From: Patescibacteria group bacterium
GTDB lineage: Bacteria; Patescibacteriota; Patescibacteriia; Veblenbacterales; UBA10138
Direction of reading: 5' to 3'
DNA: 64,000 nucleotides
NCBI GenBank assembly: GCA_018817715.1
Contig: JAHITT010000001.1
Location: 109,781 to 173,780, forward strand
The notes under the pieces were generated by a model. That model saw nothing but the letters and a program-made list of their open reading frames with translations. It did not search any database and was not told the origin of the DNA. The stretch's first letter is position 1; every line of letters begins with the position of its first letter. The translations under genes were made by a program, and so were the position numbers. This document shows, piece by piece, positions 1,564 through 42,783 of this stretch.

Positions 1564-2901
1564 CTAATAATTCAAGCTATCTATATCATCCTGATAACGA
1601 TTCGCCAAAGCCACAACACTGTCACCATAAAAACTATAAGCCGGGTTAACCGAACCGGCAAAATACTTCATAGCGGCTGTCCACTCGCCCGATTGCTGCC
1701 TAGCGCCATCGGCGCCTAACTTTACACCAGCGGCCACAAAAGCATCCCGAATATCCCAAGGATTAGCTGTCCGGCCAGTAATCTTGGCTACTTTATCCCG
1801 ATAACCAAGCCAAGTGGAAGGAATAAATTGAGCCGGGCCCATAGCACCACCCCAGCCGATTTGCTTACCCTGTTTATCGCGCATTGGGCAAGACACCGGT
1901 GTAGTGTCGGGATCCAAACCTAACTCCTTGGTAATTTGCAAAAAAGGCTCTTGGTCGCGGGTCGGTTTCATAATTACCCGCCAGCCTTTTTCTGGCGGGT
2001 CACTGGCCCGATTGCAAGTGCCGACATTTTTACCCAAATTGGACTCTTGAGTTAAAACCGCCAACAAAAAAGCTGCTCTAACACCGGTTCGCTCCGATAC
2101 CCATTGAGCAATTTGCACAGCTTCGCCAAAAGTAACCCGCTTGGTCGTACCAAAAAGTTCATAAATACGGGCCCGAATTTCATCAGCCTTCTTTTTTTTA
2201 TCTTTTAAAAGTTGTTGATAAGCTGCTTCTTGACCTTTGGTTTGGCTAAGCAAATTATCTTGTTGAGAGATATTTTGGGATAAAGAATTTTTTTGTAAAT
2301 TAGCGATGGAAATTAAATTTTTTTGACCCTCCCGTTGATTTTCCAAATTTTTTTTATAATCAACCAGCTTTAAACCTTCTTCCTTGGAATGCTCTAACAA
2401 ACTAAACAACTGATCACTTAATAATTTATAAGTTTGGATTTCATCAAAAAAACCAGAAATACCTTTATCGTACAAAAACATGTTAAAAACCGTATTCTGC
2501 TGACTGGTAATATGCAACTGCCGTATAATTTTCGCCATTTCCTTATGTAAACCAGTAAGCCTCTGCTCGTTAATATCAATATCACCTTGGGTTTTGTTAA
2601 TCTGCTTTTCTGTGCCTTGTAGTTGCAAGGTGGTTTGCTTAATCTGCAAAGCAATGGATGATTGTTTTATCCTAAGTTCGCGAATTTTATTATTCAGGGT
2701 GGCTTTTTGTGATTGAGTGCGACCTAGTTCTTTAGTGTACTGTTCAATTTGCACTTCAATTTCTTTTAATTCCTGCTCTAACCTCTGCTGTTCAACCTGC
2801 AATTGCTGTTGGGTGACACTCCCCTGCCCTAAAGCGCTTAAATAAGGCCAAAACAAAAAATTGACTACTAAAATTATTGATAATACAAACTTAAATTTCA
2901 T
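1564..2901 (-). CDS. secreted coiled-coil protein with C-terminal lytic murein transglycosylase (MltB/Slt35-like) domain
   Basis: The C-terminal GAMGPAQFIPSTW motif resembles MltB-family lytic transglycosylases. The N-terminal 250 aa is Q/E/K/L-rich coiled coil. Likely true start is MKFKFVLSIILV (signal peptide) at 2901 rather than the ORF-track start 2958. Confidence 0.55.
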   Translation of the reverse strand: MKFKFVLSIILVVNFLFWPYLSALGQGSVTQQQLQVEQQRLEQELKEIEVQIEQYTKELGRTQSQKATLNNKIRELRIKQSSIALQIKQTTLQLQGTEKQINKTQGDIDINEQRLTGLHKEMAKIIRQLHITSQQNTVFNMFLYDKGISGFFDEIQTYKLLSDQLFSLLEHSKEEGLKLVDYKKNLENQREGQKNLISIANLQKNSLSQNISQQDNLLSQTKGQEAAYQQLLKDKKKKADEIRARIYELFGTTKRVTFGEAVQIAQWVSERTGVRAAFLLAVLTQESNLGKNVGTCNRASDPPEKGWRVIMKPTRDQEPFLQITKELGLDPDTTPVSCPMRDKQGKQIGWGGAMGPAQFIPSTWLGYRDKVAKITGRTANPWDIRDAFVAAGVKLGADGARQQSGEWTAAMKYFAGSVNPAYSFYGDSVVALANRYQDDIDSLNY

Positions 2902-2971
2902 AACAAGTTTGATTATACCATAAGAGACTAAATCAAATCGAAAAATTGATGCTGACAAAATAAACTTTCTT

Positions 2972-6613: not shown

Positions 6614-7585
6614 TCAACTAATGGATTCAAGCCAAGCCATTAACCTAAAAGCATCCTGACGTCGCAACTGATCGGTTGGTGCACCCAATAAAACCATTAA
6701 ATAGACCCGGCCGGCAGTATCACTGGCCTGCATAACCAAATTATAACCCACTTCATTAAGATGTCCCGTTTTGCTAGCACTAATACGCCAAGCTGGCTGG
6801 CTAAGCAATTGGTTAGTATTAATCAGCCGAAAAGAATTTTTATCTGTTTTAATTACCACCTCATGGGCCAAACCAGCTGATTTAATAAATTCATCCTGCC
6901 AAACCCAAGCGGCCAACCTAGCCATCTGCCAAGCCGTCCCTTTGTTTAAGGCACTTAAACCAGTTGGATCAGAAAAAACCATTTGCCCTAAATTCAAACC
7001 ATAAGCAGTTTGATTCATTTTATAAACAAAAGCTTCCAAACTTGGACTAACTTTTTTAACCAAAGCCAAAACAACATTATTAGCCGAAGCCACTGCACTA
7101 GCCTGTATAGCCTGCTCGACACTTAAGGACTCTTGCTTTAAGACTGGCAACTGACTAACAGCTTCATCTTCACTTACATAAGCTTGCCAATCAGTAATTT
7201 GACTAACCGGCTCTACCGTCACTAAAGTAGATAAATTAAGTTGACTGTCGCGTACTAAACGTAAAGACATCAACTTGGTTAAACTAGCCAAGGGCATAAT
7301 CTGCTCCGGATTTTTCGCCCCAACAATAAACCAATCAGTCACCTCAACCAATAGAACACTACGACTAGCTAAATCCAAGTCCGCTAAATTATAAACCGCT
7401 GACCAATTAACTGGAGCCTGCTGGCTGGCTAAGGATAATTTAGGCAAGGTACCTTGCCGATTATAATTATTATTAGACCAAGCCGCTGGCCACCACAAAA
7501 AACCCATGGCCAATAAGCCAATAACCAACCATTGGTTTCTATTGGGCAGAAGAATTTTGAGCCGTAAATTGCTGTAAAATTTCAT
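6614..7585 (-). CDS. D-alanyl-D-alanine carboxypeptidase (peptidase S11/PBP5-like), membrane anchored
   Basis: SxxK active-site motif in MPLASLTKLMS and an N-terminal TM segment. The start overlaps scpB by 47 nt. Confidence 0.5.
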   Translation of the reverse strand: MKFYSNLRLKILLPNRNQWLVIGLLAMGFLWWPAAWSNNNYNRQGTLPKLSLASQQAPVNWSAVYNLADLDLASRSVLLVEVTDWFIVGAKNPEQIMPLASLTKLMSLRLVRDSQLNLSTLVTVEPVSQITDWQAYVSEDEAVSQLPVLKQESLSVEQAIQASAVASANNVVLALVKKVSPSLEAFVYKMNQTAYGLNLGQMVFSDPTGLSALNKGTAWQMARLAAWVWQDEFIKSAGLAHEVVIKTDKNSFRLINTNQLLSQPAWRISASKTGHLNEVGYNLVMQASDTAGRVYLMVLLGAPTDQLRRQDAFRLMAWLESIS

Positions 7586-11226: not shown

Positions 11227-12645
11227 CTATTTTTTTGAAAAATTAATACCCAATTCAACAAGTTGTGCGGGATCAACCTGGCTAGGCGCGCCCATTAACG
11301 GATCCCGGACGTCACCGGTTAAGGGAAAAGCAATGACTTCCCGAATATTCTTTTCGCCGCATAAAATTGAAACCAAACGATCCAAACCCGGCGCAATACC
11401 GCCATGTGGCGGTACGCCATATTGAAAAGCTTCAATCAAATGACTAAACTGCTGTTTTTGCTCAACAGAAAATCCAATCAAATCCCAAATTTTTTCCTGA
11501 ATCTGAGCTTCGTGGATACGCAAGCTGCCGCCACCGACTTCCAAACCATTCAAAACTAAATCATGCTGATAAGACCGCACCCGCCCCGGATCCGTGTCCA
11601 GCCAGGGCACATCCTCTTCTTTGGGTCTAGTAAACATATGATGCGACGGCGCCCAAACGCTTTGACCTGAACCGTGAAAAAAATCTTCTGTTGTCTGTTT
11701 ATTGAATAAAGGAAAATCCACTATCCAAGCAAAGGCTAATTCATTAACATCCTCCTTATTTTGCCGTAAGTCTGGTTTGTCAGTACCATATTGGGCCATA
11801 ACTTCTTGATATTTTAACCGAGGCCAGGGCATGGTAGAAAAATATTTATCTGGAAAAAGTTTTTTAACCAAAGAAGTAAACATCTCTTCTGTTAAACTAA
11901 GCAACTCATCCTGGGACATAAAAGATGTTTCCATATCAATTTGATAAAATTCCCCCGGACTACGATCGGCCCGCGCATCTTCATCCCTAAAACAAGGGGC
12001 TATTTGAAAATACCTTTCAAACCCAGCCACCATTAATAACTGTTTATATTGCTGAGGTGATTGGGGTAAAGCAAAAAATTGTCCTGGATGCACCCGCGAA
12101 GGCACTAAATAATCCCGAGCACCTTCTGGAGTAGATTTAGATAAAATGGGTGTTTGGATATAAGTAAAATCTTTGGCTGTTAAATAATCAATTACATAAT
12201 TAATAATCTGACCCCGTAATTTAATATTACGCGACATCCGTTCGTGTCGTAAATCTAAATAACGGTACTTTAACCTTAATTCTTCGCTGGCTTGCCTATC
12301 CTCGTTGGCTATTTCAAAGGGCGGAGTTTTAGCTGAATTTATTATAGTTATTTGACTAGCTTCTATTTCAATAGCTCCACTGGTTAAAGCTGTGTTCTCT
12401 CGGCCACTCTCTCGAGTTTTAACAGTACCCTGCACCGCTACTACATACTCCGGACGTATTTCTTTGGCCGCCACTAAAGACTCTTGGGATAAATTAGGAG
12501 AAATAACCACCTGAACCAAACCAGAGGTATCACGTAAATCAATAAAAATCATTTTACCCAAATTACGCCGACCATTAACCCAGCCTTTCAGTAAGACTTG
12601 CTCTCCTATTTTATTAACCGCTTCTTTAATAAAAATACGTTGCAT
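11227..12645 (-). CDS. aspS: aspartyl-tRNA synthetase, bacterial type but lacking the GAD insertion domain
   Basis: N-terminal OB fold. Class II motifs FFALPQSPQQYKQLLM, FRDEDARADRSPEF and GGIAPGLDRLV. Only 472 aa, with DKPDLR followed directly by WIVDFPLF. Confidence 0.85.
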   Translation of the reverse strand: MQRIFIKEAVNKIGEQVLLKGWVNGRRNLGKMIFIDLRDTSGLVQVVISPNLSQESLVAAKEIRPEYVVAVQGTVKTRESGRENTALTSGAIEIEASQITIINSAKTPPFEIANEDRQASEELRLKYRYLDLRHERMSRNIKLRGQIINYVIDYLTAKDFTYIQTPILSKSTPEGARDYLVPSRVHPGQFFALPQSPQQYKQLLMVAGFERYFQIAPCFRDEDARADRSPGEFYQIDMETSFMSQDELLSLTEEMFTSLVKKLFPDKYFSTMPWPRLKYQEVMAQYGTDKPDLRQNKEDVNELAFAWIVDFPLFNKQTTEDFFHGSGQSVWAPSHHMFTRPKEEDVPWLDTDPGRVRSYQHDLVLNGLEVGGGSLRIHEAQIQEKIWDLIGFSVEQKQQFSHLIEAFQYGVPPHGGIAPGLDRLVSILCGEKNIREVIAFPLTGDVRDPLMGAPSQVDPAQLVELGINFSKK

Positions 12646-12677: not shown

Positions 12678-13976
12678 TTACGGCCTTAACCTGTTAAGCA
12701 ATCTGGGAAACGGAATGCTTTCTCGAATATGCTTTAAACCACACAGCCAAGCCACAATTCTTTCCAAACCGTAACCAAAACCAGAATGCGGCACTGAACC
12801 ATACTTTCTTAAATCTAAATACCAACCAAAATCACTGAGTGATAAATTATGTTCCAACATCCGTTTTTTTAATTCTTCATAATTATCTTCACGCTGACTA
12901 CCGCCAATTATTTCACCATAACCTTCCGGAGCCAACAAATCAGCGTTCAGCACTCTAGTTGGATCACTTGGATCCCGCTTCATATAAAAAGCCTTAACCT
13001 CGGCTGGATATTTTTCCACAAAAACCGGCCGATCATACATTTTAGTCAAAATTGTTTCATCATCCGCTCCTAAATCATCCAAATCACCTATGTCGCTACC
13101 CTGCTGTCTTAATTTATTAACGGCTTCAAGGTGAGTTAATCTGTAAAATGGTGCCTTAATATTTTGCAAAGGAGTTAAATCACGTTCCAAGATTTGTAAC
13201 TCAGTTAAATTATCTCGCAAAACAGCTTGAACAATAAAAATTATTAAAGCTTCTTGAATTTTTAAATTGTCTTCATGTTCAACAAAAGCTGCCTCGGCAT
13301 CCATCATCCAAAATTCTATTAAATGCCGACGGGTCTTGGATTTTTCTGCCCGAAAAACCGGCCCAAAATCAAATACTCGCCCCAAGGAACTAATAGCCGC
13401 TTCCAAATACAACTGCCCAGATTGAGTTAAATAAGCTGGCTCGCCAAAATAATCCAATTCAAATAAACTAGTTGTACCCTCACAAGCTGTGGGTGTTAAA
13501 ATTGGTGAATCAAATTTAATAAACCCCTGACTGTTCAAATAACTAAAGGTGGCGTTAATAATGGTATTACGAACTCGCTGAATTGCCCATTGCCTAGATG
13601 ATCTTAACCACAAATGACGATTGTCCAACAAAAAATCCGGGCCATGCTCTTTTTTGCTTATGGGATATTCGGCAGCTAAAGAAATTATTTTTACCTCCGT
13701 AGCCTGCAATTCATACTGTTCCAATTTAGGATGCTTAGCGACCACCCCCACCACACTTAAAGACGACTCTATAGTTAAAGCCTGACAATCAACTAAACTA
13801 GCAGCCGCCACCTTAGCGGCATCTACTACCACTTGGCTAAAACCAAAACCATCTCTAACTTGCAAAAACCAAATTTTACCCGAAGATCGACTATTAACCA
13901 GCCAGCCCTTAATTTCGACTGTTTGACCTAAAAAATCCTTTAATTGATGGGATTTAACATACTGCATAGTCACCAT
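12678..13976 (-). CDS. asnS: asparaginyl-tRNA synthetase
   Basis: FRAEKSKTRRHLIEFWMMDAE, GGSQRE and GFGYGLERIV motifs. Confidence 0.85.
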   Translation of the reverse strand: MVTMQYVKSHQLKDFLGQTVEIKGWLVNSRSSGKIWFLQVRDGFGFSQVVVDAAKVAAASLVDCQALTIESSLSVVGVVAKHPKLEQYELQATEVKIISLAAEYPISKKEHGPDFLLDNRHLWLRSSRQWAIQRVRNTIINATFSYLNSQGFIKFDSPILTPTACEGTTSLFELDYFGEPAYLTQSGQLYLEAAISSLGRVFDFGPVFRAEKSKTRRHLIEFWMMDAEAAFVEHEDNLKIQEALIIFIVQAVLRDNLTELQILERDLTPLQNIKAPFYRLTHLEAVNKLRQQGSDIGDLDDLGADDETILTKMYDRPVFVEKYPAEVKAFYMKRDPSDPTRVLNADLLAPEGYGEIIGGSQREDNYEELKKRMLEHNLSLSDFGWYLDLRKYGSVPHSGFGYGLERIVAWLCGLKHIRESIPFPRLLNRLRP

Positions 13977-14113: not shown

Positions 14114-14599
14114 ATGCTAGAAAAAATAAAACAATTAACTTGGAAATTATTCGAACCAATCTTCCCGTCAGTCAGAGATTTTTGGGTTTTCTTGGGATTT
14201 ATTAAACATTCGACCAGACAGCCTCACCTATTAGGTAAATTAAAACCTGGACTAACTAAAAAATCTTTGCGGACCAAATTAAACTTGGCTGGCTTCAGCG
14301 ATGATTATTTGGCTTGGATAGATCCAGACGAAATATTAAATATGCGGAAAATCGTTAAAACAATTTACCAATATCACGTTCGACTATTTTTAGACGGTGA
14401 AATTAGAGGACACTACGAATATACAGCAGAAAGTCACCCTTTTAAACATCTTTACGATAAGGGTATGACAGATGGTCGGGATTATTTGCTACCTCTTTTA
14501 CAGGATCTACTACTACCCGAAGTGGCCAAATTAAATCCCAAATCGCCGCCGCCACATTCTGAGGATTCCCTCTTAAAGGAAAATGATGCAAATCAATAA
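14114..14599 (+). CDS. hypothetical protein (161 aa); 3' end overlaps the convergent ATP-grasp gene by 158 nt
   Basis: Long ORF with an upstream intergenic region. No recognisable motif. The long convergent overlap makes the exact C-terminus, or even reality, uncertain. Confidence 0.3.
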   Translation: MLEKIKQLTWKLFEPIFPSVRDFWVFLGFIKHSTRQPHLLGKLKPGLTKKSLRTKLNLAGFSDDYLAWIDPDEILNMRKIVKTIYQYHVRLFLDGEIRGHYEYTAESHPFKHLYDKGMTDGRDYLLPLLQDLLLPEVAKLNPKSPPPHSEDSLLKENDANQ

Positions 14600-15722
14600 A
14601 AGGTAAACTATTGCATTCAATTATTCCTGAACCCGGCTGTTCTTGCCAAGGCCGACTAATATCCTCCAAAATCATATCAAAACCGATAATTGAATCAGCT
14701 ACCACACTGGCTGCTCGTTCGAATAATAACCTGTTTTGCGGATGAACCTGATCGGTTACTTCAATAGTCGCGCCACCCAAACCACGATTAACTTTGCGAT
14801 TTAAAAAAACCCTAGTTCCTGGCCCGGGCACCGATAACCAATTATAGCCTTGGCTAGTTAATTCTGATTCTGTCTCCTGATTTTTAATCACTGGGGAAAA
14901 AACTTCCGCTTGACCAGACTTTTGCTGATTAATCTGATCAACCAATTGATCAATAGTACTTAAACCGTCGCCTAATACACTGGCTAATTCCCGGCGAGCT
15001 ACGGCTTGCAATTTTAATTTAATTACCGTAGCTCGATGAACTTCACCTGTTAACTGCTCTTCAATTATCACCCAGGGGCTAATTTTTTGCGCTGAATAAA
15101 AAGCCTTAACCAATTGACTACGGGTCATAATATTACTAAAAGTATGACGACTTCTGGAACCAAACCTTGGTTTAACGATTAAAGGACCACCTAACTTATC
15201 AAAAATACTAAGGGCTTTTTTTACTAAAACCGCGCTACCGCCACGAGCAATCGGTAAACCAGCCGCCTGAAATTTTTGGCGCATAATAGCCTTGTCATCC
15301 ATCCAAGATAAACCAATTGTTGGACCAACTGGTCGAGGTAAGCCGTCAAAAATATAATAATGACCGTTTAGACTAGCTACCATTATATCAGTTGGTCTTT
15401 TAAACAAACGCCACTCTTTTAAAACAATACCGCGCCTTAAAGCCTCTTGCCACAAAACTTTAGTACGTGAATTATGATCGGGTCTTAAATCTTCAACTAT
15501 CTCCGCTAAACCCAATCGGGCGGTTCCCAACATAATTGTATAAGCCAACTTATGCCAAGCCCGACTAAGCCTAAGTGGCTGAAAAAAGACAGCGATTTTC
15601 TCCAAAACTTTTATATAGGGCTTAAGTAGTTGATCAATCAAACTGGTCCACCAAGCTAAACGATGAGAAGTTGGCGCTGAACCACAATCAACACAAATTG
15701 TTTTTCTTTTAATTTTAGACAT
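14442..15722 (-). CDS. cyanophycin-synthetase-like ATP-grasp protein (CphA N-domain plus ATP-grasp domain only, no Mur-ligase domain)
   Basis: LIVKPRFGSRSRHT, HPQNRLLFERAASVVADSIIGFDMI, GIIECNSLP and RGNPQNVAAAIWDLIWP align by eye with the N/G domains of CphA. N-terminal CVDCGS Cys pair. Confidence 0.6.
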   Translation of the reverse strand: MSKIKRKTICVDCGSAPTSHRLAWWTSLIDQLLKPYIKVLEKIAVFFQPLRLSRAWHKLAYTIMLGTARLGLAEIVEDLRPDHNSRTKVLWQEALRRGIVLKEWRLFKRPTDIMVASLNGHYYIFDGLPRPVGPTIGLSWMDDKAIMRQKFQAAGLPIARGGSAVLVKKALSIFDKLGGPLIVKPRFGSRSRHTFSNIMTRSQLVKAFYSAQKISPWVIIEEQLTGEVHRATVIKLKLQAVARRELASVLGDGLSTIDQLVDQINQQKSGQAEVFSPVIKNQETESELTSQGYNWLSVPGPGTRVFLNRKVNRGLGGATIEVTDQVHPQNRLLFERAASVVADSIIGFDMILEDISRPWQEQPGSGIIECNSLPFIDLHHFPLRGNPQNVAAAIWDLIWPLRVVVDPVKEVANNPDHLSYPYRKDV

Positions 15723-19068: not shown

Positions 19069-20106
19069 TTATTCAACCGAAATAAAATGTTTAACTAACT
19101 GAATCATTATATCCTTTTGTTTGGGCTGGCTGGAAGCCACCAATAAAGCCAAAGCTACCAAAGTAGTATCGGCTATTTTCCTTTGGCCTTTTTTATTTAG
19201 TAAATAATTATTCCTAGCCAAATATATTATTAACAAAAAAGAAGCGATTCTTTTATTACCATCCACAAAAGGATGATCCTTAATAATTAAATAAAAAAGA
19301 TGAGCTGCTTTATCTTCTAAACTAAAATAAAGTTCCCGGCCAGCATAAGTTTGGTTAACAGCTGCTAAAATACCAACTAAAGAATTACTTTTATCCAAAC
19401 CAAATAAGTCGCTAGCCTGCTTTTTATCAACCAATTGATTCTTTAACTCACTGATAGCCGGCACCGCCTGATCATAGGACAAACGATATTTAATGTTTTG
19501 CAACTCCTTAGCCAAGGCCGGTAAAACACCTTGATCGTAACTGTGAAGCAATAACCAAGACTGAGTATAATCGGTTATAACTTGAAGCAAACCAATCGCC
19601 TCTTCTCTGTCTAAATAACGATTAAGTAAAGTATTTTGTAAAACACTAACCGCTTGCTCTAATTTTTTAAAACTTAAACCAGTTTGGTCTTTAAGACGAT
19701 TTTGATTAAGAGTAAAACCTTGCACTAAATGGTCTTTTAAAACCTTACTGGCCCAAACTCTAAATCTAGTCCCCTGTTTGGAATTAACCCGATAGCCCAC
19801 AGAAATAATGGCATCTAAATTATAATACTCTAAAGCGCGTTTTATCTGACGATTTCCCTCATTTTGAACTGTTGCATATTTGGCAACAGTTGCCGACTTG
19901 TTAAGCTCCTTTTCCTTATAAATATTGGTTAAATGGCGGGAAATTACCGACTTATCCCGATTAAATAAATCGGCCATTTGTTGCAAGGTTAACCAAACCG
20001 TATCTTTATTTAAACGAACTTCTAAAGAAGAAATTTTACCTGTTGGTTGATAAATAATAACTTCACCTCGATTGACTATTGATTTGTTATCTTTACTAGT
20101 GGCCAT
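19069..20106 (-). CDS. RhuM-family N-terminal domain fused to a Fic/Doc domain
   Basis: The N-terminal YNLDAIISVGYRVNSKQGTRFRVWASKVLKDHL is classic RhuM (PF13310). The C-terminal HPFVDGNKRIASFLL is the Fic motif HxFx(D/E)GNxR. Confidence 0.7.
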   Translation of the reverse strand: MATSKDNKSIVNRGEVIIYQPTGKISSLEVRLNKDTVWLTLQQMADLFNRDKSVISRHLTNIYKEKELNKSATVAKYATVQNEGNRQIKRALEYYNLDAIISVGYRVNSKQGTRFRVWASKVLKDHLVQGFTLNQNRLKDQTGLSFKKLEQAVSVLQNTLLNRYLDREEAIGLLQVITDYTQSWLLLHSYDQGVLPALAKELQNIKYRLSYDQAVPAISELKNQLVDKKQASDLFGLDKSNSLVGILAAVNQTYAGRELYFSLEDKAAHLFYLIIKDHPFVDGNKRIASFLLIIYLARNNYLLNKKGQRKIADTTLVALALLVASSQPKQKDIMIQLVKHFISVE

Positions 20107-22912: not shown

Positions 22913-24466
22913 TTACTTAGGCAAAAGCTCTCTGGATTTAACAGCTGGCTGATCAATTGAATCTGTGAACGGCTCAATCATAGGCCAAGACTGAGGCGTT
23001 GGCCGGTTGTTTTGGCCATTGTTAGCCAAAGCTTGATCAACCAATTCCTTAACCAAAGGCACCACTACCCCTACTTGATTTAATTGGTTTTGGTGGCTGT
23101 TAAAATTATTAACCGGAAACAATAAAGCTGGCACATACAAAAATTGGCCACTATTTTCTTTTTGCTGCCACCATTTAGCATAAATTAACTTAGGAGTCAT
23201 AAGTTCTACATCTCCGCCCGGCTGATTTGATTCCATAATATAATAAATATCACTTTGCCAACCACCCTGAAGCGCTAATTTTAACAAACGATCAAAATCC
23301 GTTTCCATTTCATAGGCTGAACCAACAAAACTATTAAGCTGAGCTCCCCATAAGCCGGTCACCCGCTGACTACGCAAACTAACACTAACAGTTAAACCAA
23401 CTGGCTGACCGCCAGATAGTTCATACACCTCTTTGTCCTGCAGACTCCAGGGATATAAAACAGTCATAGTATCTGGATAATAAATTTCCTGACCAGAAAC
23501 GGTCTGAGCCAAAACCCTGGGCCAATCTTTATTAACTATCGGCTGACCATAATCACTTAAATCAAAATTTATATCTGACAAAAATTTATTAGCAATTGAT
23601 ATTAACTGATCATTAGGCAACAACTGCTCTTGAGTAATTCTGTTTTGTATTACGCAAGCCTCATCCCTACAATTAGCTTCCGGATGAGGCCAATAAGCCC
23701 AGTTTTCTCCCAAAGACAACTGCCCTTCACTACCGCTCCAGCTGACTATATAACCAAATTCTTTATTTTGTGATAATGACCAAGACTGTAAAGACAGATC
23801 ATTGAATTTGCTTAAATCCAAAGGCAATTTGCCTAATTGTCCAAATAGTCCTCTAATCGAGCCACTACTTGAAGATGGTTGATATTGCACAACCATGCTG
23901 GAGCTAGGCAAATCATCGATTTTTTCCCCTTTATAAACATAGTTCAAACTCGGCTGCGGCTGATAAGGTGCCGGATAAATTAAAGATTTAGCACTGGCTG
24001 ATGAATCAGCTGACAAAGATTCAGCCCGAGGAGCCGCTAGGCTTAAGCCGCCACCTCCACCCAAACCAGTAGCTTGCTTAATCGCTGGCTGACTCAACAA
24101 AGAACCAAAAGCTCTGTCTGGTAATCCAATTAGTTTGTTTGAATTAATCTGATAGTCTAATTTAGGTAAAAATTGAACAGTCAAAATGACTAACAATAAA
24201 ATACCGCTAACACCCCAACCTAATACAGGTGATCTAAAATAATTGCCTATCACACCAAAATAAGTAGACCAAAAGTTAGTCGGCCGCTTAGCAAACTTAT
24301 TTAACAATTGATTTTTTAATTCATTCTTAAAATTTTCATCTATTACCAAAGCGGGCCGGGCCATAGTTAAAGCCTGCAAAATTTTAATCAATTCCCCCTC
24401 CCTCTGGCGTAAACCAGGCTCTAATTGATAAATATCTTCTAATATCTGCTGATAAATATTTTCCAT
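22913..24466 (-). CDS. putative membrane-spanning anti-sigma factor (cytoplasmic N-domain, 1 TM, large extracytoplasmic domain)
   Basis: Follows the ECF sigma gene 4 nt downstream on the same strand. TM helix GVSGILLLVILTVQFL after roughly 80 cytoplasmic residues. Confidence 0.4.
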   Translation of the reverse strand: MENIYQQILEDIYQLEPGLRQREGELIKILQALTMARPALVIDENFKNELKNQLLNKFAKRPTNFWSTYFGVIGNYFRSPVLGWGVSGILLLVILTVQFLPKLDYQINSNKLIGLPDRAFGSLLSQPAIKQATGLGGGGGLSLAAPRAESLSADSSASAKSLIYPAPYQPQPSLNYVYKGEKIDDLPSSSMVVQYQPSSSSGSIRGLFGQLGKLPLDLSKFNDLSLQSWSLSQNKEFGYIVSWSGSEGQLSLGENWAYWPHPEANCRDEACVIQNRITQEQLLPNDQLISIANKFLSDINFDLSDYGQPIVNKDWPRVLAQTVSGQEIYYPDTMTVLYPWSLQDKEVYELSGGQPVGLTVSVSLRSQRVTGLWGAQLNSFVGSAYEMETDFDRLLKLALQGGWQSDIYYIMESNQPGGDVELMTPKLIYAKWWQQKENSGQFLYVPALLFPVNNFNSHQNQLNQVGVVVPLVKELVDQALANNGQNNRPTPQSWPMIEPFTDSIDQPAVKSRELLPK

Positions 24467-31104: not shown

Positions 31105-31180
31105 GGGTCCATAGCTCAGCTGGTAGAGCAGCGGCCTTTTAAGCCGCGTGTCGTGGGTTCGAGCCCCACTGGACCCACCA
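31105..31180 (+). tRNA. tRNA-Lys (anticodon UUU), CCA encoded
   Basis: GGGTCCATAGCTCAGCTGGTAGAGCAGCGGCCTTTTAAGCCGC...GGTTCGAGCCCCACTGGACCCACCA, anticodon loop CTTTTAA. Confidence 0.85.
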
Positions 31181-31360: not shown

Positions 31361-31380
31361 GAGCCCCACTGGACCCACCA
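31361..31380. repeat. exact 20-nt direct repeat of the tRNA-Lys 3' end (gagccccactggacccacca), 200 nt downstream
   Basis: Identical to 31161-31180. Flanks differ. att-site-like. Confidence 0.75.
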
Positions 31381-31445
31381 ATACAAAACTGGCCGGGGAA
31401 AATTTTTAAAACCAATTCGTGGGTGGCTCGCGGAACCATTTTTTC

Positions 31446-32060
31446 TTACTCTCTGTCAGTAAACACTATGAGCCGACCGGAACTAGTTTTCTCCGCCTTA
31501 TTCCAAACTCCCGTGCAAGTAATTAGATTAAGATGCGCTTTTCCGTCGCTTGAGTCAAACACATCAGAAGCATCCTCATTTTTGTCATATATCTGAATTT
31601 CGCGGACAACAAAAATAATATTCACCCCTTTTTCATCTTCAACAGATATTTTGTCACCTTTGCGTAGTTTATATAAATTATCAAATACCGCCGGCAGGTC
31701 ATTCTTCCAGCTGTAATGCCCGGCAATAACGGAACTACCACTCTGCCCGGGACGCGGCCCAAGATTAAACCATGCTACTTTAACAGGGTCTTTTGGTACG
31801 TCCATTGCTCCGTCGGATGTAAGACCCACATACTCAATTGGAGCATCAACATTTATACTTGGAATTTTGAGACGCTCTGGTAATCCAACGTTTGCTTGTT
31901 CTAAGTTTGGAATAGTGACGACATTTTCAACAAGCATTGCCGAGCCATTTTGAGTTGAGCTTTTAGGTAAAAAATACAAAAGAAATACGATAAAAAGAGT
32001 TAATCCTGAAAGGATAACTATTGATAATAATGTTCGTTTTGATAAAATTTTTAATTGCAT
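31446..32060 (-). CDS. sortase family transpeptidase
   Basis: N-terminal TM anchor, catalytic TLITCTG (TLxTC) motif and conserved Arg near the C-terminus. Start set at MQLK (32060), downstream of the terminator hairpin of the preceding gene. Confidence 0.7.
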   Translation of the reverse strand: MQLKILSKRTLLSIVILSGLTLFIVFLLYFLPKSSTQNGSAMLVENVVTIPNLEQANVGLPERLKIPSINVDAPIEYVGLTSDGAMDVPKDPVKVAWFNLGPRPGQSGSSVIAGHYSWKNDLPAVFDNLYKLRKGDKISVEDEKGVNIIFVVREIQIYDKNEDASDVFDSSDGKAHLNLITCTGVWNKAEKTSSGRLIVFTDRE

Positions 32061-32082
32061 AAATTTTACAAAAGGTTCATGA

Positions 32083-32125
32083 CCACAAATGCCAGACAAA
32101 AATTTGTCTGGCATTTGCTCATTAG
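32083..32125 (-). terminator. terminator hairpin after the LPXTG protein gene
   Basis: caaatgccagacaaa-...-tttgtctggcatttg inverted repeat. Confidence 0.5.
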
Positions 32126-32143
32126 TTTTTCTCAATGCTTAGA

Positions 32144-33199
32144 CTAAACCGTTTGTTTTCTTCGAACAAAGTAGAAAAAAATTGAGACCGCAAAGACGCC
32201 CGCCAGGATGACGATATTCCAGGGAGTACCTTTCTCGTCAAAACCAATTCCCGTATTTGGTAGTTTTGGAGAGACTACTAGAAGTGGAGGTGTAGGAGTT
32301 ATTGTGGGTGTTGGAGTTGGTGTAGGAGTTATTGTGGGTGTTGGAGTTGGTGTAGGAGTTATTGTGGGTGTTGGAGTTGGTGTAGGAGTTATTGTGGGTG
32401 TTGGAGTTGGTGTAGGAGTTATTGTGGGTGTTGGAGTTGAAACAGTAGGAATCGAAACAATATCAGCATCAAGAGTGACTGCGGTTTGAGCAAGAGCTCT
32501 ACCATTTAGTGTTGCACCAGTGTTTAACACAATTGCTGTTTGATCCAATATATTTCCACTAAAGTTAGAGCCTGTTCCGAGTGTAGTTTGGCCTGCAACC
32601 TGCCAGAATATATTAGAAGCCTGTGCACCACCACTAAGGACAACTTTCACAGAGGAGCTTACAGTAAGAGTTTGTGCTATCTGGAAAATCCAAACATCAT
32701 TTGCGCCACCAGAAAGAGTAACGTCTGTTGGTATTGTTACACCAGTGCTCCATTTATAAAGTCCTGGAGCAAGGGTCATTCCCCCAATGTTTCCTGCTCC
32801 TAATTCAGTAGCCGTCGGATTTATTCTTCCAGCAGCATCTGTATAGGCAGTTTCCATATCATTTATAGCTGTAACCATTTTAGCAGGTGTAGGAGACATA
32901 TAATCAGCAGCATATGCTTTTCCGGTCACTAGAGCTGACGTCGAAAATGTATTCGAAGCATCTATTGTTAACCCAAAACCAGTCATAGCAGTTGCGCTGA
33001 TTGGACTTACCCCAATATCTCCAGTAATTGAGGTGGCTCCAGTGGTTGAAATTCCTGATTTTGTCAAAATAACAAAATCACCCGCTGATCCAAGATTTAC
33101 TGTGGCTGGACCAGCCGCGAATACAGTAATTGCTGAAGTGATAAACATTAAGAAAACAACCAACGTAGTTATTATTGAATTTTTATTAATTTTTTTCAT
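32144..33199 (-). CDS. LPXTG-anchored surface protein with DUF3494 (ice-binding-protein-like beta-helix) domain and (TPTPTPTI)x5 linker
   Basis: Signal peptide. LGSAGDFVILTKSGISTTGATSITGDIGVSPISATAMTGF matches the DUF3494/IBP family. The C-terminus carries LPNTG, a hydrophobic stretch and RRKQTV. Confidence 0.65.
   Translation of the reverse strand: MKKINKNSIITTLVVFLMFITSAITVFAAGPATVNLGSAGDFVILTKSGISTTGATSITGDIGVSPISATAMTGFGLTIDASNTFSTSALVTGKAYAADYMSPTPAKMVTAINDMETAYTDAAGRINPTATELGAGNIGGMTLAPGLYKWSTGVTIPTDVTLSGGANDVWIFQIAQTLTVSSSVKVVLSGGAQASNIFWQVAGQTTLGTGSNFSGNILDQTAIVLNTGATLNGRALAQTAVTLDADIVSIPTVSTPTPTITPTPTPTPTITPTPTPTPTITPTPTPTPTITPTPTPTPTITPTPPLLVVSPKLPNTGIGFDEKGTPWNIVILAGVFAVSIFFYFVRRKQTV
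32285..32442. repeat. tandem repeat, 30-nt unit x ~5 (encodes PTPTPTITPT on the minus strand)
   Basis: gtaggagttattgtgggtgttggagttggt repeated head-to-tail. Confidence 0.85.
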
Positions 33200-33282: not shown

Positions 33283-33477
33283 TTAGATGAAGTCATCGAC
33301 CTTTACATTAAGCGCTTTCGCTATTTTCTTGAGTGTATCGAGTGTTGGGTTCTGGTTCCTGCCGGTTTCAATTTTTACAATCGTATTAAGGGCGACATCG
33401 GCCAATCGCGCTAATTTTTCTTGAGATAACCCTTTGACTTCTCTTAACTTTCTTAACTTTTTAGCGATATTTGACAT
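33283..33477 (-). CDS. XRE-family helix-turn-helix transcriptional regulator (64 aa)
   Basis: LRKLREVKGLSQEKLARLADVALNTIVKIETGRNQNPTLDTLKKIAKALNV. Confidence 0.7.
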   Translation of the reverse strand: MSNIAKKLRKLREVKGLSQEKLARLADVALNTIVKIETGRNQNPTLDTLKKIAKALNVKVDDFI

Positions 33478-33772
33478 AATGCTATTTATAATTAGTGGAT
33501 AAAATATTAACTGTACTACAGTTAAACTATCTTAATACTACACCTATGGTTAAATACTGTCAAGTAGTTAATTTTAATACTATCGATAACTTTACTGTAA
33601 GTTTATTAGGTGGCTATACCACGCACAACTCCATATTTTCTTGCGGTGCATTTTGCTTTGTAAAATACAAATCCCATCGGCGCGAAAAGCGAGTGGTAGT
33701 GGGGCGAAGTGTTCGTCCGTTTCAGAAATTTTTGCTAAAATAGGTTTAAGCGTGGTTGTATAAATATACCAC

Positions 33773-41733: not shown

Positions 41734-42783
41734 TTATATAAGTTGGCCTTGCTTTTTTTTATAAGCCCAAACCAATACTATACCTAACATTATCATTACT
41801 AAAACCAAAACCAGCAAAGCCCAAATTTTACCTAAGCTACTTAAAAATAAAGCTGTTAAACCAAACAAAGCAGTTAAAACATAAAGAAAAACCACTGCTT
41901 GACGATGCGATAAACCAACATCCAATAAACGATGGTGCAAGTGGCGCCTATCTGAAGCTGCTAAACTTTTCTTTTCCAAAAACAAACGTCTAATAATTAC
42001 CCAAACCACATCCAATATCGGCACGCCCATAACTAACAAAGCCGTAGCAATTTTACTACCGCTAATAATAGCCAATACACCCAACATAAAACCAATATAC
42101 AAACTACCACCTTCGCCCAAAAAAATCTTAGCCGGCTGCCAGTTCCACCACAAAAAACCTAAACAAGCGCCCGCCATCACCAAAGCCAAATAACCAACCG
42201 ACGGCTGGTAAAAGGCTGTTACTTGAGTTAAACCAAAAATTATTAAACTACCAATTAAACCAATACCCGTAGCCAAACCATCTAAACCATCTAATAATTT
42301 AGTGGTATACATAGTGCCTAACAGCCAAAAAAAGGTCAAAAACAAGCCTAAATAAGGCCAAAAATCATTAAGCTTAATAACACCGCCCAAGGGATTGGTA
42401 ACAGCCGAAACTGTCACACCGCCAACCATAACAGTGGCCACCGCTAGCAGTGGCCAAAGAATCTGTTGCCAAGGCTTAAGTTTGTAGCAATCATCCAAAT
42501 ACCCGCCGACCATTAATAAACCACTGCCAATCATTAAACTTATAATTTGTCTAGCAGTTATATCTCGACCAATTATTAAATCTGTAAAAAAGGCTAAATA
42601 ACCAACCAACAACAAAACTGTTAACCAAATAGCCGTACCGCCCAACAAAGCCACCGGTTGTGAATGAATTTTTCTTAGATTATCCGGATTATCCACTATT
42701 TTAAAATGCCAAGCTACTTTTTTTACTAAAAAAGTTAAACTATAAGCCACTATAAAACTGATAATAAAAAAAATAATTTTCAT
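41734..42783 (-). CDS. glycosyltransferase family 4 polyprenyl-phosphate sugar-phosphotransferase (WecA/MraY-like)
   Basis: 10-11 TM. KLLDGLDGLATG motif of the MraY/WecA superfamily. No clear MraY-specific PTMGG. Confidence 0.7.
   Translation of the reverse strand: MKIIFFIISFIVAYSLTFLVKKVAWHFKIVDNPDNLRKIHSQPVALLGGTAIWLTVLLLVGYLAFFTDLIIGRDITARQIISLMIGSGLLMVGGYLDDCYKLKPWQQILWPLLAVATVMVGGVTVSAVTNPLGGVIKLNDFWPYLGLFLTFFWLLGTMYTTKLLDGLDGLATGIGLIGSLIIFGLTQVTAFYQPSVGYLALVMAGACLGFLWWNWQPAKIFLGEGGSLYIGFMLGVLAIISGSKIATALLVMGVPILDVVWVIIRRLFLEKKSLAASDRRHLHHRLLDVGLSHRQAVVFLYVLTALFGLTALFLSSLGKIWALLVLVLVMIMLGIVLVWAYKKKQGQLI

Follow-up and report, generated by a model that had tools for sequence, protein, structure and literature searches.

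A DUF3494 protein gene, a sortase gene and a helix-turn-helix gene as a probable surface-display module in Patescibacteria

How might a member of the Patescibacteria hold a DUF3494 protein at its surface, and what would the protein bind there? These questions are raised by a locus in a stretch of 64,000 nucleotides (nt) from a Patescibacteria group bacterium (contig JAHITT010000001.1, positions 109,781 to 173,780), here called the window, in which the gene for a protein with a DUF3494 domain lies upstream of a sortase gene on the same strand. The protein is referred to below as IBP, after the ice-binding proteins of its family. An earlier note on this DNA, made from the letters alone, had read the two genes as a sortase and its stalked, LPXTG-anchored adhesin, a candidate for attachment to a host or substrate. 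Our analysis suggests that they form, together with a preceding helix-turn-helix (HTH) gene, a three-gene surface-display unit, and that the displayed domain probably recognizes ice or something resembling it. The features of the locus are collected in Table 1.

Table 1. Elements of the module, in the order of their positions in the window
Feature	Position	Strand	Basis or remark
Inverted repeat rich in G+C, flanked on either side by T-rich runs	31416..31434	.	12 nt past the sortase stop codon
Membrane-anchored sortase, 204 aa, with N-terminal transmembrane segment	31446..32060	-	Pfam Sortase; GenBank MBU1038764.1
Perfect 15-bp RNA hairpin between IBP stop codon and sortase start codon	32085..32118	-	Folding energy and covariation
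IBP gene, 351 aa	32144..33199	-	Open reading frame translation, identical to GenBank MBU1038765.1
Cell-wall sorting signal: LPNTG, 10-aa spacer, hydrophobic helix, RRKQTV tail	32147..32263	-	Read from the sequence
Perfect tandem array, 30-nt unit, 5.0 copies	32289..32439	-	Tandem Repeats Finder (TRF), 100% matches, score 302
DUF3494/IBP-1 beta-solenoid with flanking alpha-helix (aa 29-250)	32450..33115	-	PF11999, AlphaFold2, Foldseek
XRE/Cro-type HTH protein, 64 aa, first gene of the module, presumed regulator	33283..33477	-	Pfam HTH_3, E=1.9e-16
Promoter-like site TTGACA, 17-nt spacer, TAGTAT	33535..33563	-	Some 55 nt before the HTH gene

IBP, which GenBank titles 'DUF3494 domain-containing protein [Patescibacteria group bacterium]', consists in order of a putative signal peptide (aa 1–28), the DUF3494/IBP-1 domain, a Thr-Pro spacer, the motif LPNTG, a hydrophobic helix and the tail RRKQTV. 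Judged by eye, its N-terminus has a basic n-region, a hydrophobic core and the sequence VFA/AG, and these are kept across homologues. The Pfam profile PF11999 (Ice_binding) matches residues 44–248 with 270.4 bits (E=1.3e-80; gathering cut-off, 28.7 bits) and is covered from position 1 to position 207 of its 208. Over the domain, an AlphaFold2 (AF2) model computed from 49 homologues is confident, with a mean predicted local distance difference test score (pLDDT) of 87–97 in most 10-residue blocks and 75 in one loop block, and folds it into beta-coils with a single long helix at residues 104–124. This is the discontinuous triangular beta-solenoid, braced by a long alpha-helix, that characterizes the IBP-1 fold: a Foldseek search of the PDB matched the model to more than 20 solved IBP-1 structures with template modelling (TM) scores, normalised to the target, of 0.90–0.96. 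The top matches, 9LHN, 9LHS and 9LI0 (TM 0.95–0.96; root-mean-square deviation 0.8–1.3 Å; 73–81% identity), were released in September 2025 as 'ice binding protein from Candidatus Cryosericum odellii SMC5', a permafrost bacterium, and are followed by FfIBP, LeIBP, TisAFP and ColAFP, which share 45–56% identity with IBP. Profile and structure prediction thus agree with the DUF3494 domain and the beta-helix that the earlier note had proposed. In the engineered Cryosericum protein 9LI0 (M74I, A97V), both residues were altered to the family consensus (ATAITGFG and GKVYAADY); at these positions IBP has Met72 and Ala95, the same as the wild-type Cryosericum protein.

In the sorting signal, LPNTG occupies aa 313–317 (nt 32249..32263) and the AF2 model places a helix at 327–346. 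No other open reading frame (ORF) among all those of the window has an LPXTG-type C-terminus. LPNTG is also the commonest motif among the homologues with such a tail (19/34), and the combination of LPNTG, hydrophobic stretch and basic tail is conserved. A D-Ala-D-Ala carboxypeptidase (6614..7585) and an MraY-family protein (Glycos_transf_4; 41734..42783) are encoded elsewhere in the window, making it plausible that a cell wall is available for anchoring.

The product of the downstream gene matches the Pfam profile Sortase (PF04203) with 82.6 bits, against a cut-off of 26.6 (E=2.6e-23), and its predicted catalytic residues His115, Cys182 (within LNLITC) and Arg196 are invariant in 24 homologues. 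The earlier note was right about the sorting signal with its hydrophobic helix and RRKQTV tail and about a sortase directly downstream on the same strand, which has an intact catalytic triad, although the active-site motif is NLITC rather than the TLITC given there. GenBank names the enzyme 'class F sortase', and the NCBIfam model class_F_sortase (NF033748) is the best-scoring class for 24/24 homologues, with E values down to 1e-38; the window enzyme itself, however, obtains 126 bits on this model, under the curated cut-off of 166, and no solved sortase in the PDB is closer to it than E=5e-7. It is therefore best described, as far as sequence goes, as belonging to a class-F-like clade of Patescibacteria. 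The ORF of the gene extends further upstream (31446..32135, minus strand), but translation most likely begins with the ATG at 32060, as annotated in GenBank, since this fits the conserved N-terminus MQxKILSK.

The association of the two genes was examined from both sides. Among 80 metagenome loci with sortases 50–75% identical to that of the window, 45 had at least 1.2 kb of upstream sequence and were counted. An LPXTG-type ORF lies directly upstream on the same strand in 40 of the 45, and in 33 an upstream ORF carries a DUF3494 domain as judged by a domain-only hidden Markov model, 27 of the 45 having it immediately adjacent. The sortase subfamily is thus usually linked to an upstream LPXTG gene with a DUF3494 domain. 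Conversely, among 80 IBP loci from GTDB species representatives, a same-strand downstream sortase was found in 16 (17 with L001, a twin assembly of the window), all titled as Patescibacteria-type lineages or just 'bacterium'. Two layouts were seen: 1) In the common one, an IBP with a peptidoglycan-binding-like tail is followed by a second, divergent DUF3494 protein with an LPXTG motif and then by the sortase. The second protein (about 390–750 aa) has a divergent PF11999 domain, DUF7507 or SpaA_2 domains of the stalk type and the LPXTG signal, and such clusters occur in L007, L009–L011, L021, L026, L028, L035, L039 and L040 (e.g. L010:7335-9215). In the sole protein tested (L010), the Pfam match of the tail to PG_binding_1 is sub-threshold (20.7 bits versus 23). 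2) In the clade of the window (L001–L004, L086, L094 and L099), the LPXTG signal is on the canonical IBP itself. Taking sequence and context together, the predicted mechanism of anchoring is well supported. None of the papers searched connects a sortase or an LPXTG signal with DUF3494 or ice-binding proteins, and none describes such proteins in Patescibacteria.

The module also includes the HTH gene. L003, L086, L099 and L110 have a gene 81–94% identical to it immediately before the IBP gene, and L105 has one that is 48% identical, whereas the remaining neighbours (an RNase T-like exonuclease, DnaB and a Na/Ca exchanger) are shared only with the twin assembly. At the nucleotide level, the L003 locus is homologous from 31439, immediately beyond the sortase stop codon, up to 33688; the homology begins at the same position in L086 and extends upstream to 33544 in L086 and to 33594 in L099. 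Judged from these alignments, the HTH, IBP and sortase genes are one module, with flanks that differ among genomes. The promoter-like site falls inside the L003 and L099 homology spans; it has 10 of 12 consensus matches and is joint best in the region, but the total number of such sites is not above that in shuffled sequence. At the other end, the inverted repeat past the sortase gene appeared in the terminator scan on the plus strand, and a minus-strand tail, TTGGTTTTAAAAATTTT, can be read from the sequence; it is likely to be a bidirectional terminator that closes the module. The span given in the earlier note (31446-33199) leaves out the HTH gene and contains, without remark, the hairpin described below, and both belong to the unit. 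The start codons of the IBP and sortase genes stand in a common A/T-rich context, AAAATTTATG (33135..33199 and 32060..32075), and that of the HTH gene follows an A/T-rich leader (33477..33492); no recognisable Shine-Dalgarno sequence was seen at any of the three starts.

Between the IBP and sortase genes, the minus-strand transcript can fold into a hairpin with a minimum free energy z-score of -3.8, and most related loci have a hairpin at the same position. Aligned across 25 loci, the stem has 96.5% of its cells paired and compensatory double changes in 10 of its 15 pairs; none of 500 shuffles matched the observed values, and controls with the register slid were 31–48% paired. The core stem, UGCCAGACA/UGUCUGGCA, is followed in the window by UUUGUGGU. 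Other loci have hairpins with G-C closing pairs and no U-run, so that the U-tract is inconsistent among members, and the terminator scan did not list the hairpin. No Rfam family matches it on the minus strand, the only overlap being a sub-threshold plus-strand match to rli38. Most likely it acts in the mRNA, where it would terminate or protect some of the transcripts behind the gene of an abundant substrate. Three other explanations were considered: i) a dispersed repeat was discarded, as the sequence has a single copy in the window; ii) a coding N-terminal extension of the sortase, as implied by 222-aa calls in JGI/ENA data, was rejected, as the compensatory changes would alter the peptide and MQxKILSK is the conserved start, and the gene calls that begin inside the hairpin ('MPDKFLSGICG...') are probably wrong; and iii) a palindromic protein-binding site instead of an RNA structure is less likely, the G-U pairs being on the sense strand only.

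These elements suggest the following working of the module. IBP would be exported by the Sec pathway and kept in the membrane by its C-terminal helix and the RRKQTV tail, until the membrane-anchored, class-F-like sortase cuts LPNTG between Thr and Gly and joins the protein covalently to peptidoglycan. The Pro-rich spacer of TPTPTPTPTI units, about 10–20 nm long if extended and depending on copy number, would take the beta-solenoid through the wall, so that its flat face is displayed on the cell surface. The RNA hairpin would most likely terminate or stabilise some of the transcripts, which would give more substrate than enzyme, and the HTH protein may regulate the unit. If the displayed face binds ice, as in the IBPs to which it is 45–81% identical, the cell could gain protection during freeze-thaw or become attached to ice.

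The reach of the displayed domain would depend on the spacer. The tandem array codes for 10-aa TPTPTPTPTI units within a 62-aa spacer (aa 251–312), and an array of this kind, with a period of 30 nt, is far beyond chance expectation. AF2 confidence is low over this region (about aa 251–321), which is consistent with an extended or disordered segment. Thr/Pro-rich spacers are general: among 34 LPXTG-type homologues they measure 38–218 aa (median 72 aa) with about 49% Thr plus Pro, and several relatives have tandem arrays of their own, with periods of 6, 12, 18 or 51 nt, at the spacer position. This range and the differing periods indicate that spacer length is unstable over evolutionary time. 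A Thr-Pro stalk and five copies of a 30-nt unit were therefore correctly recognized in the earlier note, which gave the unit as TPTPTPTI, two residues short. Its suggestion of phase variation does not hold, since a 30-nt unit within the ORF stays in frame; a change in copy number alters length and not phase, and a two-copy form encodes a full-length protein of 321 aa.

Variation in length was observed once, in the twin assembly L001 (ENA contig k141_780464, 531 kb; ERZ27247128), which has two repeat units instead of five. The difference may be real heterogeneity or a collapse in the de Bruijn graph, and for the latter, i.e. an artefact of short-read assembly of a perfect 151-nt array, we find the balance even. 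The two contigs are 100% identical across the other 21 kb, with no difference outside the repeat, as if one population had been sampled or the same reads assembled twice; the shorter form is on a contig with a MEGAHIT-style 'k141' name; and, by our reasoning, a perfect array of this length with a period of 30 nt holds no k-mer of 121 nt or less that is not repeated within it. Synthetic forms with 1, 3, 4, 6, 7, 8 or 9 copies (TRF count) were all absent from 15 billion proteins, leaving no copy-number form other than five and two. Against a collapse, units so perfectly identical imply that the array has recently grown or shrunk through slippage or recombination, and the spread of spacer lengths and the arrays of other periods at the same site in relatives point the same way. 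The length variability predicted by the earlier note accordingly has one instance, which a collapse in the k141 assembly could explain.

The domain itself is 57–82% identical in Saccharibacteria, Paceibacteria, Chloroflexota, Gemmatimonadota, Geobacteraceae, Rhodoferax and Cryosericum and also in the archaea Methanoregula, Methanoperedens, Micrarchaeota and Nanoarchaeota. Vertical inheritance over such distances, between phyla and between bacteria and archaea, would leave far lower identity, and these comparisons indicate that the domain has spread horizontally. The anchor differs with the lineage: LPXTG or, in most cases, a peptidoglycan-binding-like tail is found in Patescibacteria, N-terminal extra domains in Proteobacteria, PGF-CTERM-like tails (PGFELVF.../PGFDFTL..., then RKRR) in two archaeal metagenome-assembled genomes (MAGs; L042:5881-6906 and L054:2239-3360), and a tail like that of type IX secretion system substrates in an Ignavibacteriaceae MAG (L080:5989-7089). 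In Methanoregula MAGs, proteins of 949–1188 aa have four or five tandem DUF3494 domains (L031:5992-8841, L051:5944-9510 and L052:5983-8907), each 64–71% identical to the window domain at the DNA level. The contig L016 (CAYGGQ010000008.1), titled Gammaproteobacteria, encodes an IBP with 67% identity to that of the window and a Patescibacteria-type, peptidoglycan-binding-like C-terminus and may be mis-binned.

A conserved passenger domain on interchangeable anchors suggests a ligand that is met by all these organisms. The 73–81% identity to the Cryosericum IBP, together with the 57–82% identity across phyla and archaea, favours such a shared ligand over the target of a host-specific adhesin, and we lean, slightly, towards ice or an ice-like ordered surface. 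Judged by name rather than by metadata, many of the sources belong to projects on permafrost, peat, glacier-fed streams or the Dry Valleys.

Several points weigh against this reading of the module. Related modules also occur in MAGs and metagenomes from Rifle GW2011, Crystal Geyser CG, DeMMO and Hainich, by their names non-freezing aquifers and a deep mine, and in non-freezing aquifers ice binding would have no obvious use. The description of 9LHN as ice-binding is the title chosen by its depositors, a literature search having found no paper behind this structure or on ice binding in Cryosericum. IBP does not reach the NCBIfam equivalog IBP_CFB for Bacteroidota-type IBPs (NF045625; 250 bits versus a cut-off of 400), and the class F score of the sortase is likewise below its threshold, as is the match of IBP to the Pfam model Gram_pos_anchor (16.7 bits versus a cut-off of 20). 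The inconsistent U-tract makes a terminator role of the hairpin uncertain. DUF3494 proteins are, moreover, documented in ice-free habitats, and subsurface and sediment sequences are reported to have Ser, Gly or Thr in place of Ala at the key b-face column, so that their binding to ice may be weaker (PMC12337378).

The main rival reading is that the wall-anchored DUF3494 protein is an adhesin for a target other than ice, such as the surface of a bacterium or archaeon serving as host to an episymbiont, a mineral or a polysaccharide. Homologous modules are common in Patescibacteria of groundwater-type samples that are non-freezing by name, and the second DUF3494 protein found in most Patescibacteria clusters, with DUF7507 or SpaA_2 domains and LPXTG, has the architecture of Gram-positive fibrillar adhesins. 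However, a host-specific receptor binder is expected to diverge fast, whereas the domain keeps its identity across differing lifestyles, including that of free-living methanogens with 4–5 tandem copies. The depositors of the closest solved relative, which is from a permafrost organism, titled it an ice-binding protein, and the literature searched ascribes host attachment of Patescibacteria to type IV pili. Such conservation being unexpected of a host-specific adhesin, we consider an adhesin for a non-ice target unlikely, and the attachment to a host that the earlier note had favoured is not supported, given the identity to permafrost IBP structures and the occurrence of similar domains in free-living bacteria and archaea. 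It is a distinctly long shot that in Patescibacteria of habitats that never freeze the domain does not bind ice at all and the module is a horizontally shared attachment device, by which ultra-small episymbionts bind a universal ordered surface of partners or minerals and the repeat copy number tunes the reach. Very improbable is that IBP escapes the sortase, staying tethered by its C-terminal transmembrane helix or being released while the enzyme serves substrates elsewhere: the sub-threshold Gram_pos_anchor score, a search for further substrates that covered 64 kb of the genome and the non-covalent, peptidoglycan-binding-like C-terminus of some Patescibacteria IBPs would allow it, but the LPXTG ORF upstream of this sortase subfamily in 40 of the 45 counted loci and the conserved LPNTG, hydrophobic stretch and basic tail speak against it, and in L001–L004 there is no second LPXTG protein and IBP has the signal, as if the role of substrate had moved there.

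Covalent display of an ice-type domain is thus the reading that we retain, and with respect to how the module arrived, a tRNA gene close to it was considered. The last 20 nt of tRNA-Lys(UUU) (31105..31180), GAGCCCCACTGGACCCACCA, recur exactly 180 nt downstream (31361..31380), in the interval between the tRNA and the sortase gene; no such duplication is expected by chance, and the interval, which has three small hairpins, resembles a scar left by an element that had integrated or been excised. However, both copies are on one side of the module, no third copy of the tRNA end, nor any match of at least 11 nt, was found beyond the HTH gene, and in the relatives no tRNA-Lys adjoins the module. Integration of the module at tRNA-Lys was therefore rejected as unsupported.

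Elsewhere in the window, on the minus strand, a 345-aa protein with RhuM-family and Fic/DOC domains (Pfam) is encoded at 19069..20106, and two tandem paralogues of class II (D/K/N-type) aminoacyl-tRNA synthetases at 11227..12645 and 12678..13976. Three further minus-strand ORFs of 426–517 aa (1564..2958, 14442..15722 and 22913..24466) have no Pfam match at E<=1e-5; the 517-aa ORF comes after a gene for an extracytoplasmic function (ECF)-type sigma factor in the twin locus.

DUF3494 proteins are the commonest microbial ice binders, and the means by which they are retained at the surface is known for few of them. The locus offers a predicted covalent, sortase-based display that many Patescibacteria keep in the form of a small module. 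The surface biology of these bacteria is scarcely known, and most of their lineages are not yet genetically tractable. Consisting of a single 222-aa domain, a single sortase and a single peptide motif, the locus is a simple test system for whether 'subsurface' DUF3494 domains still bind ice, to which the hairpin adds a covariation-supported RNA element that may set the ratio of substrate to enzyme. It is a known type of protein with a new mode of anchoring and a new module, not a new kind of system; current concepts are unchanged by this useful, well-defined example.

Compared with known systems, IBP shares its Pfam family and the beta-solenoid-helix fold with the DUF3494/IBP-1 proteins of solved structure (9LHN, 9LHS, 9LI0, FfIBP 4NU2, LeIBP 3UYU, TisAFP 3VN3 and ColAFP 3WP9), and its N-terminus resembles the signal peptide that most bacterial members have. 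It differs in its Thr-Pro spacer, its LPXTG motif and the dedicated sortase gene, the characterised IBPs being secreted or otherwise anchored. With the ice adhesins SfIBP_1 of Shewanella frigidimarina (6BG8; DUF3494 and Big domains; 32% identity to IBP) and the RTX adhesin MpIBP of Marinomonas primoryensis, it has in common the logic of an ice-binding domain held away from the cell on an extender, the activity being carried by the cell rather than the medium (PMC5014055, PMC11645318). Those proteins are from Gram-negative bacteria and have folded, immunoglobulin-like extenders with anchoring as a lipoprotein or through the type I secretion system, whereas IBP has a low-complexity TP repeat for an extender and, as proposed, a sortase-made bond to peptidoglycan for an anchor. 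Fibrillar adhesins have a stalk of tandem folded domains and an adhesive tip, and IBP has a low-complexity TP spacer only; the paralogous second protein of other Patescibacteria does have DUF7507 or SpaA_2 domains.

The LPXTG proteins of Gram-positive bacteria share with IBP the whole predicted order of signal peptide, passenger, Pro/Thr-rich wall spacer, LPXTG, hydrophobic stretch and basic tail, and their sortases share with the window enzyme the His-Cys-Arg triad and the N-terminal membrane anchor. Unlike the housekeeping sortases, the window enzyme is encoded beside its putative substrate, as are pilus and accessory sortases, and its host is a Patescibacterium; from class F it is set apart by its score on NF033748 and by the distance of its PDB relatives. 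Certain intercistronic stem-loops set unequal expression within operons, for example after the gene of a major structural subunit. The hairpin of the module differs from these in having neither a consistent U-tract nor an Rfam family, and resembles them as a stable, covarying structure placed after a presumably abundant structural gene and before the gene of an enzyme.

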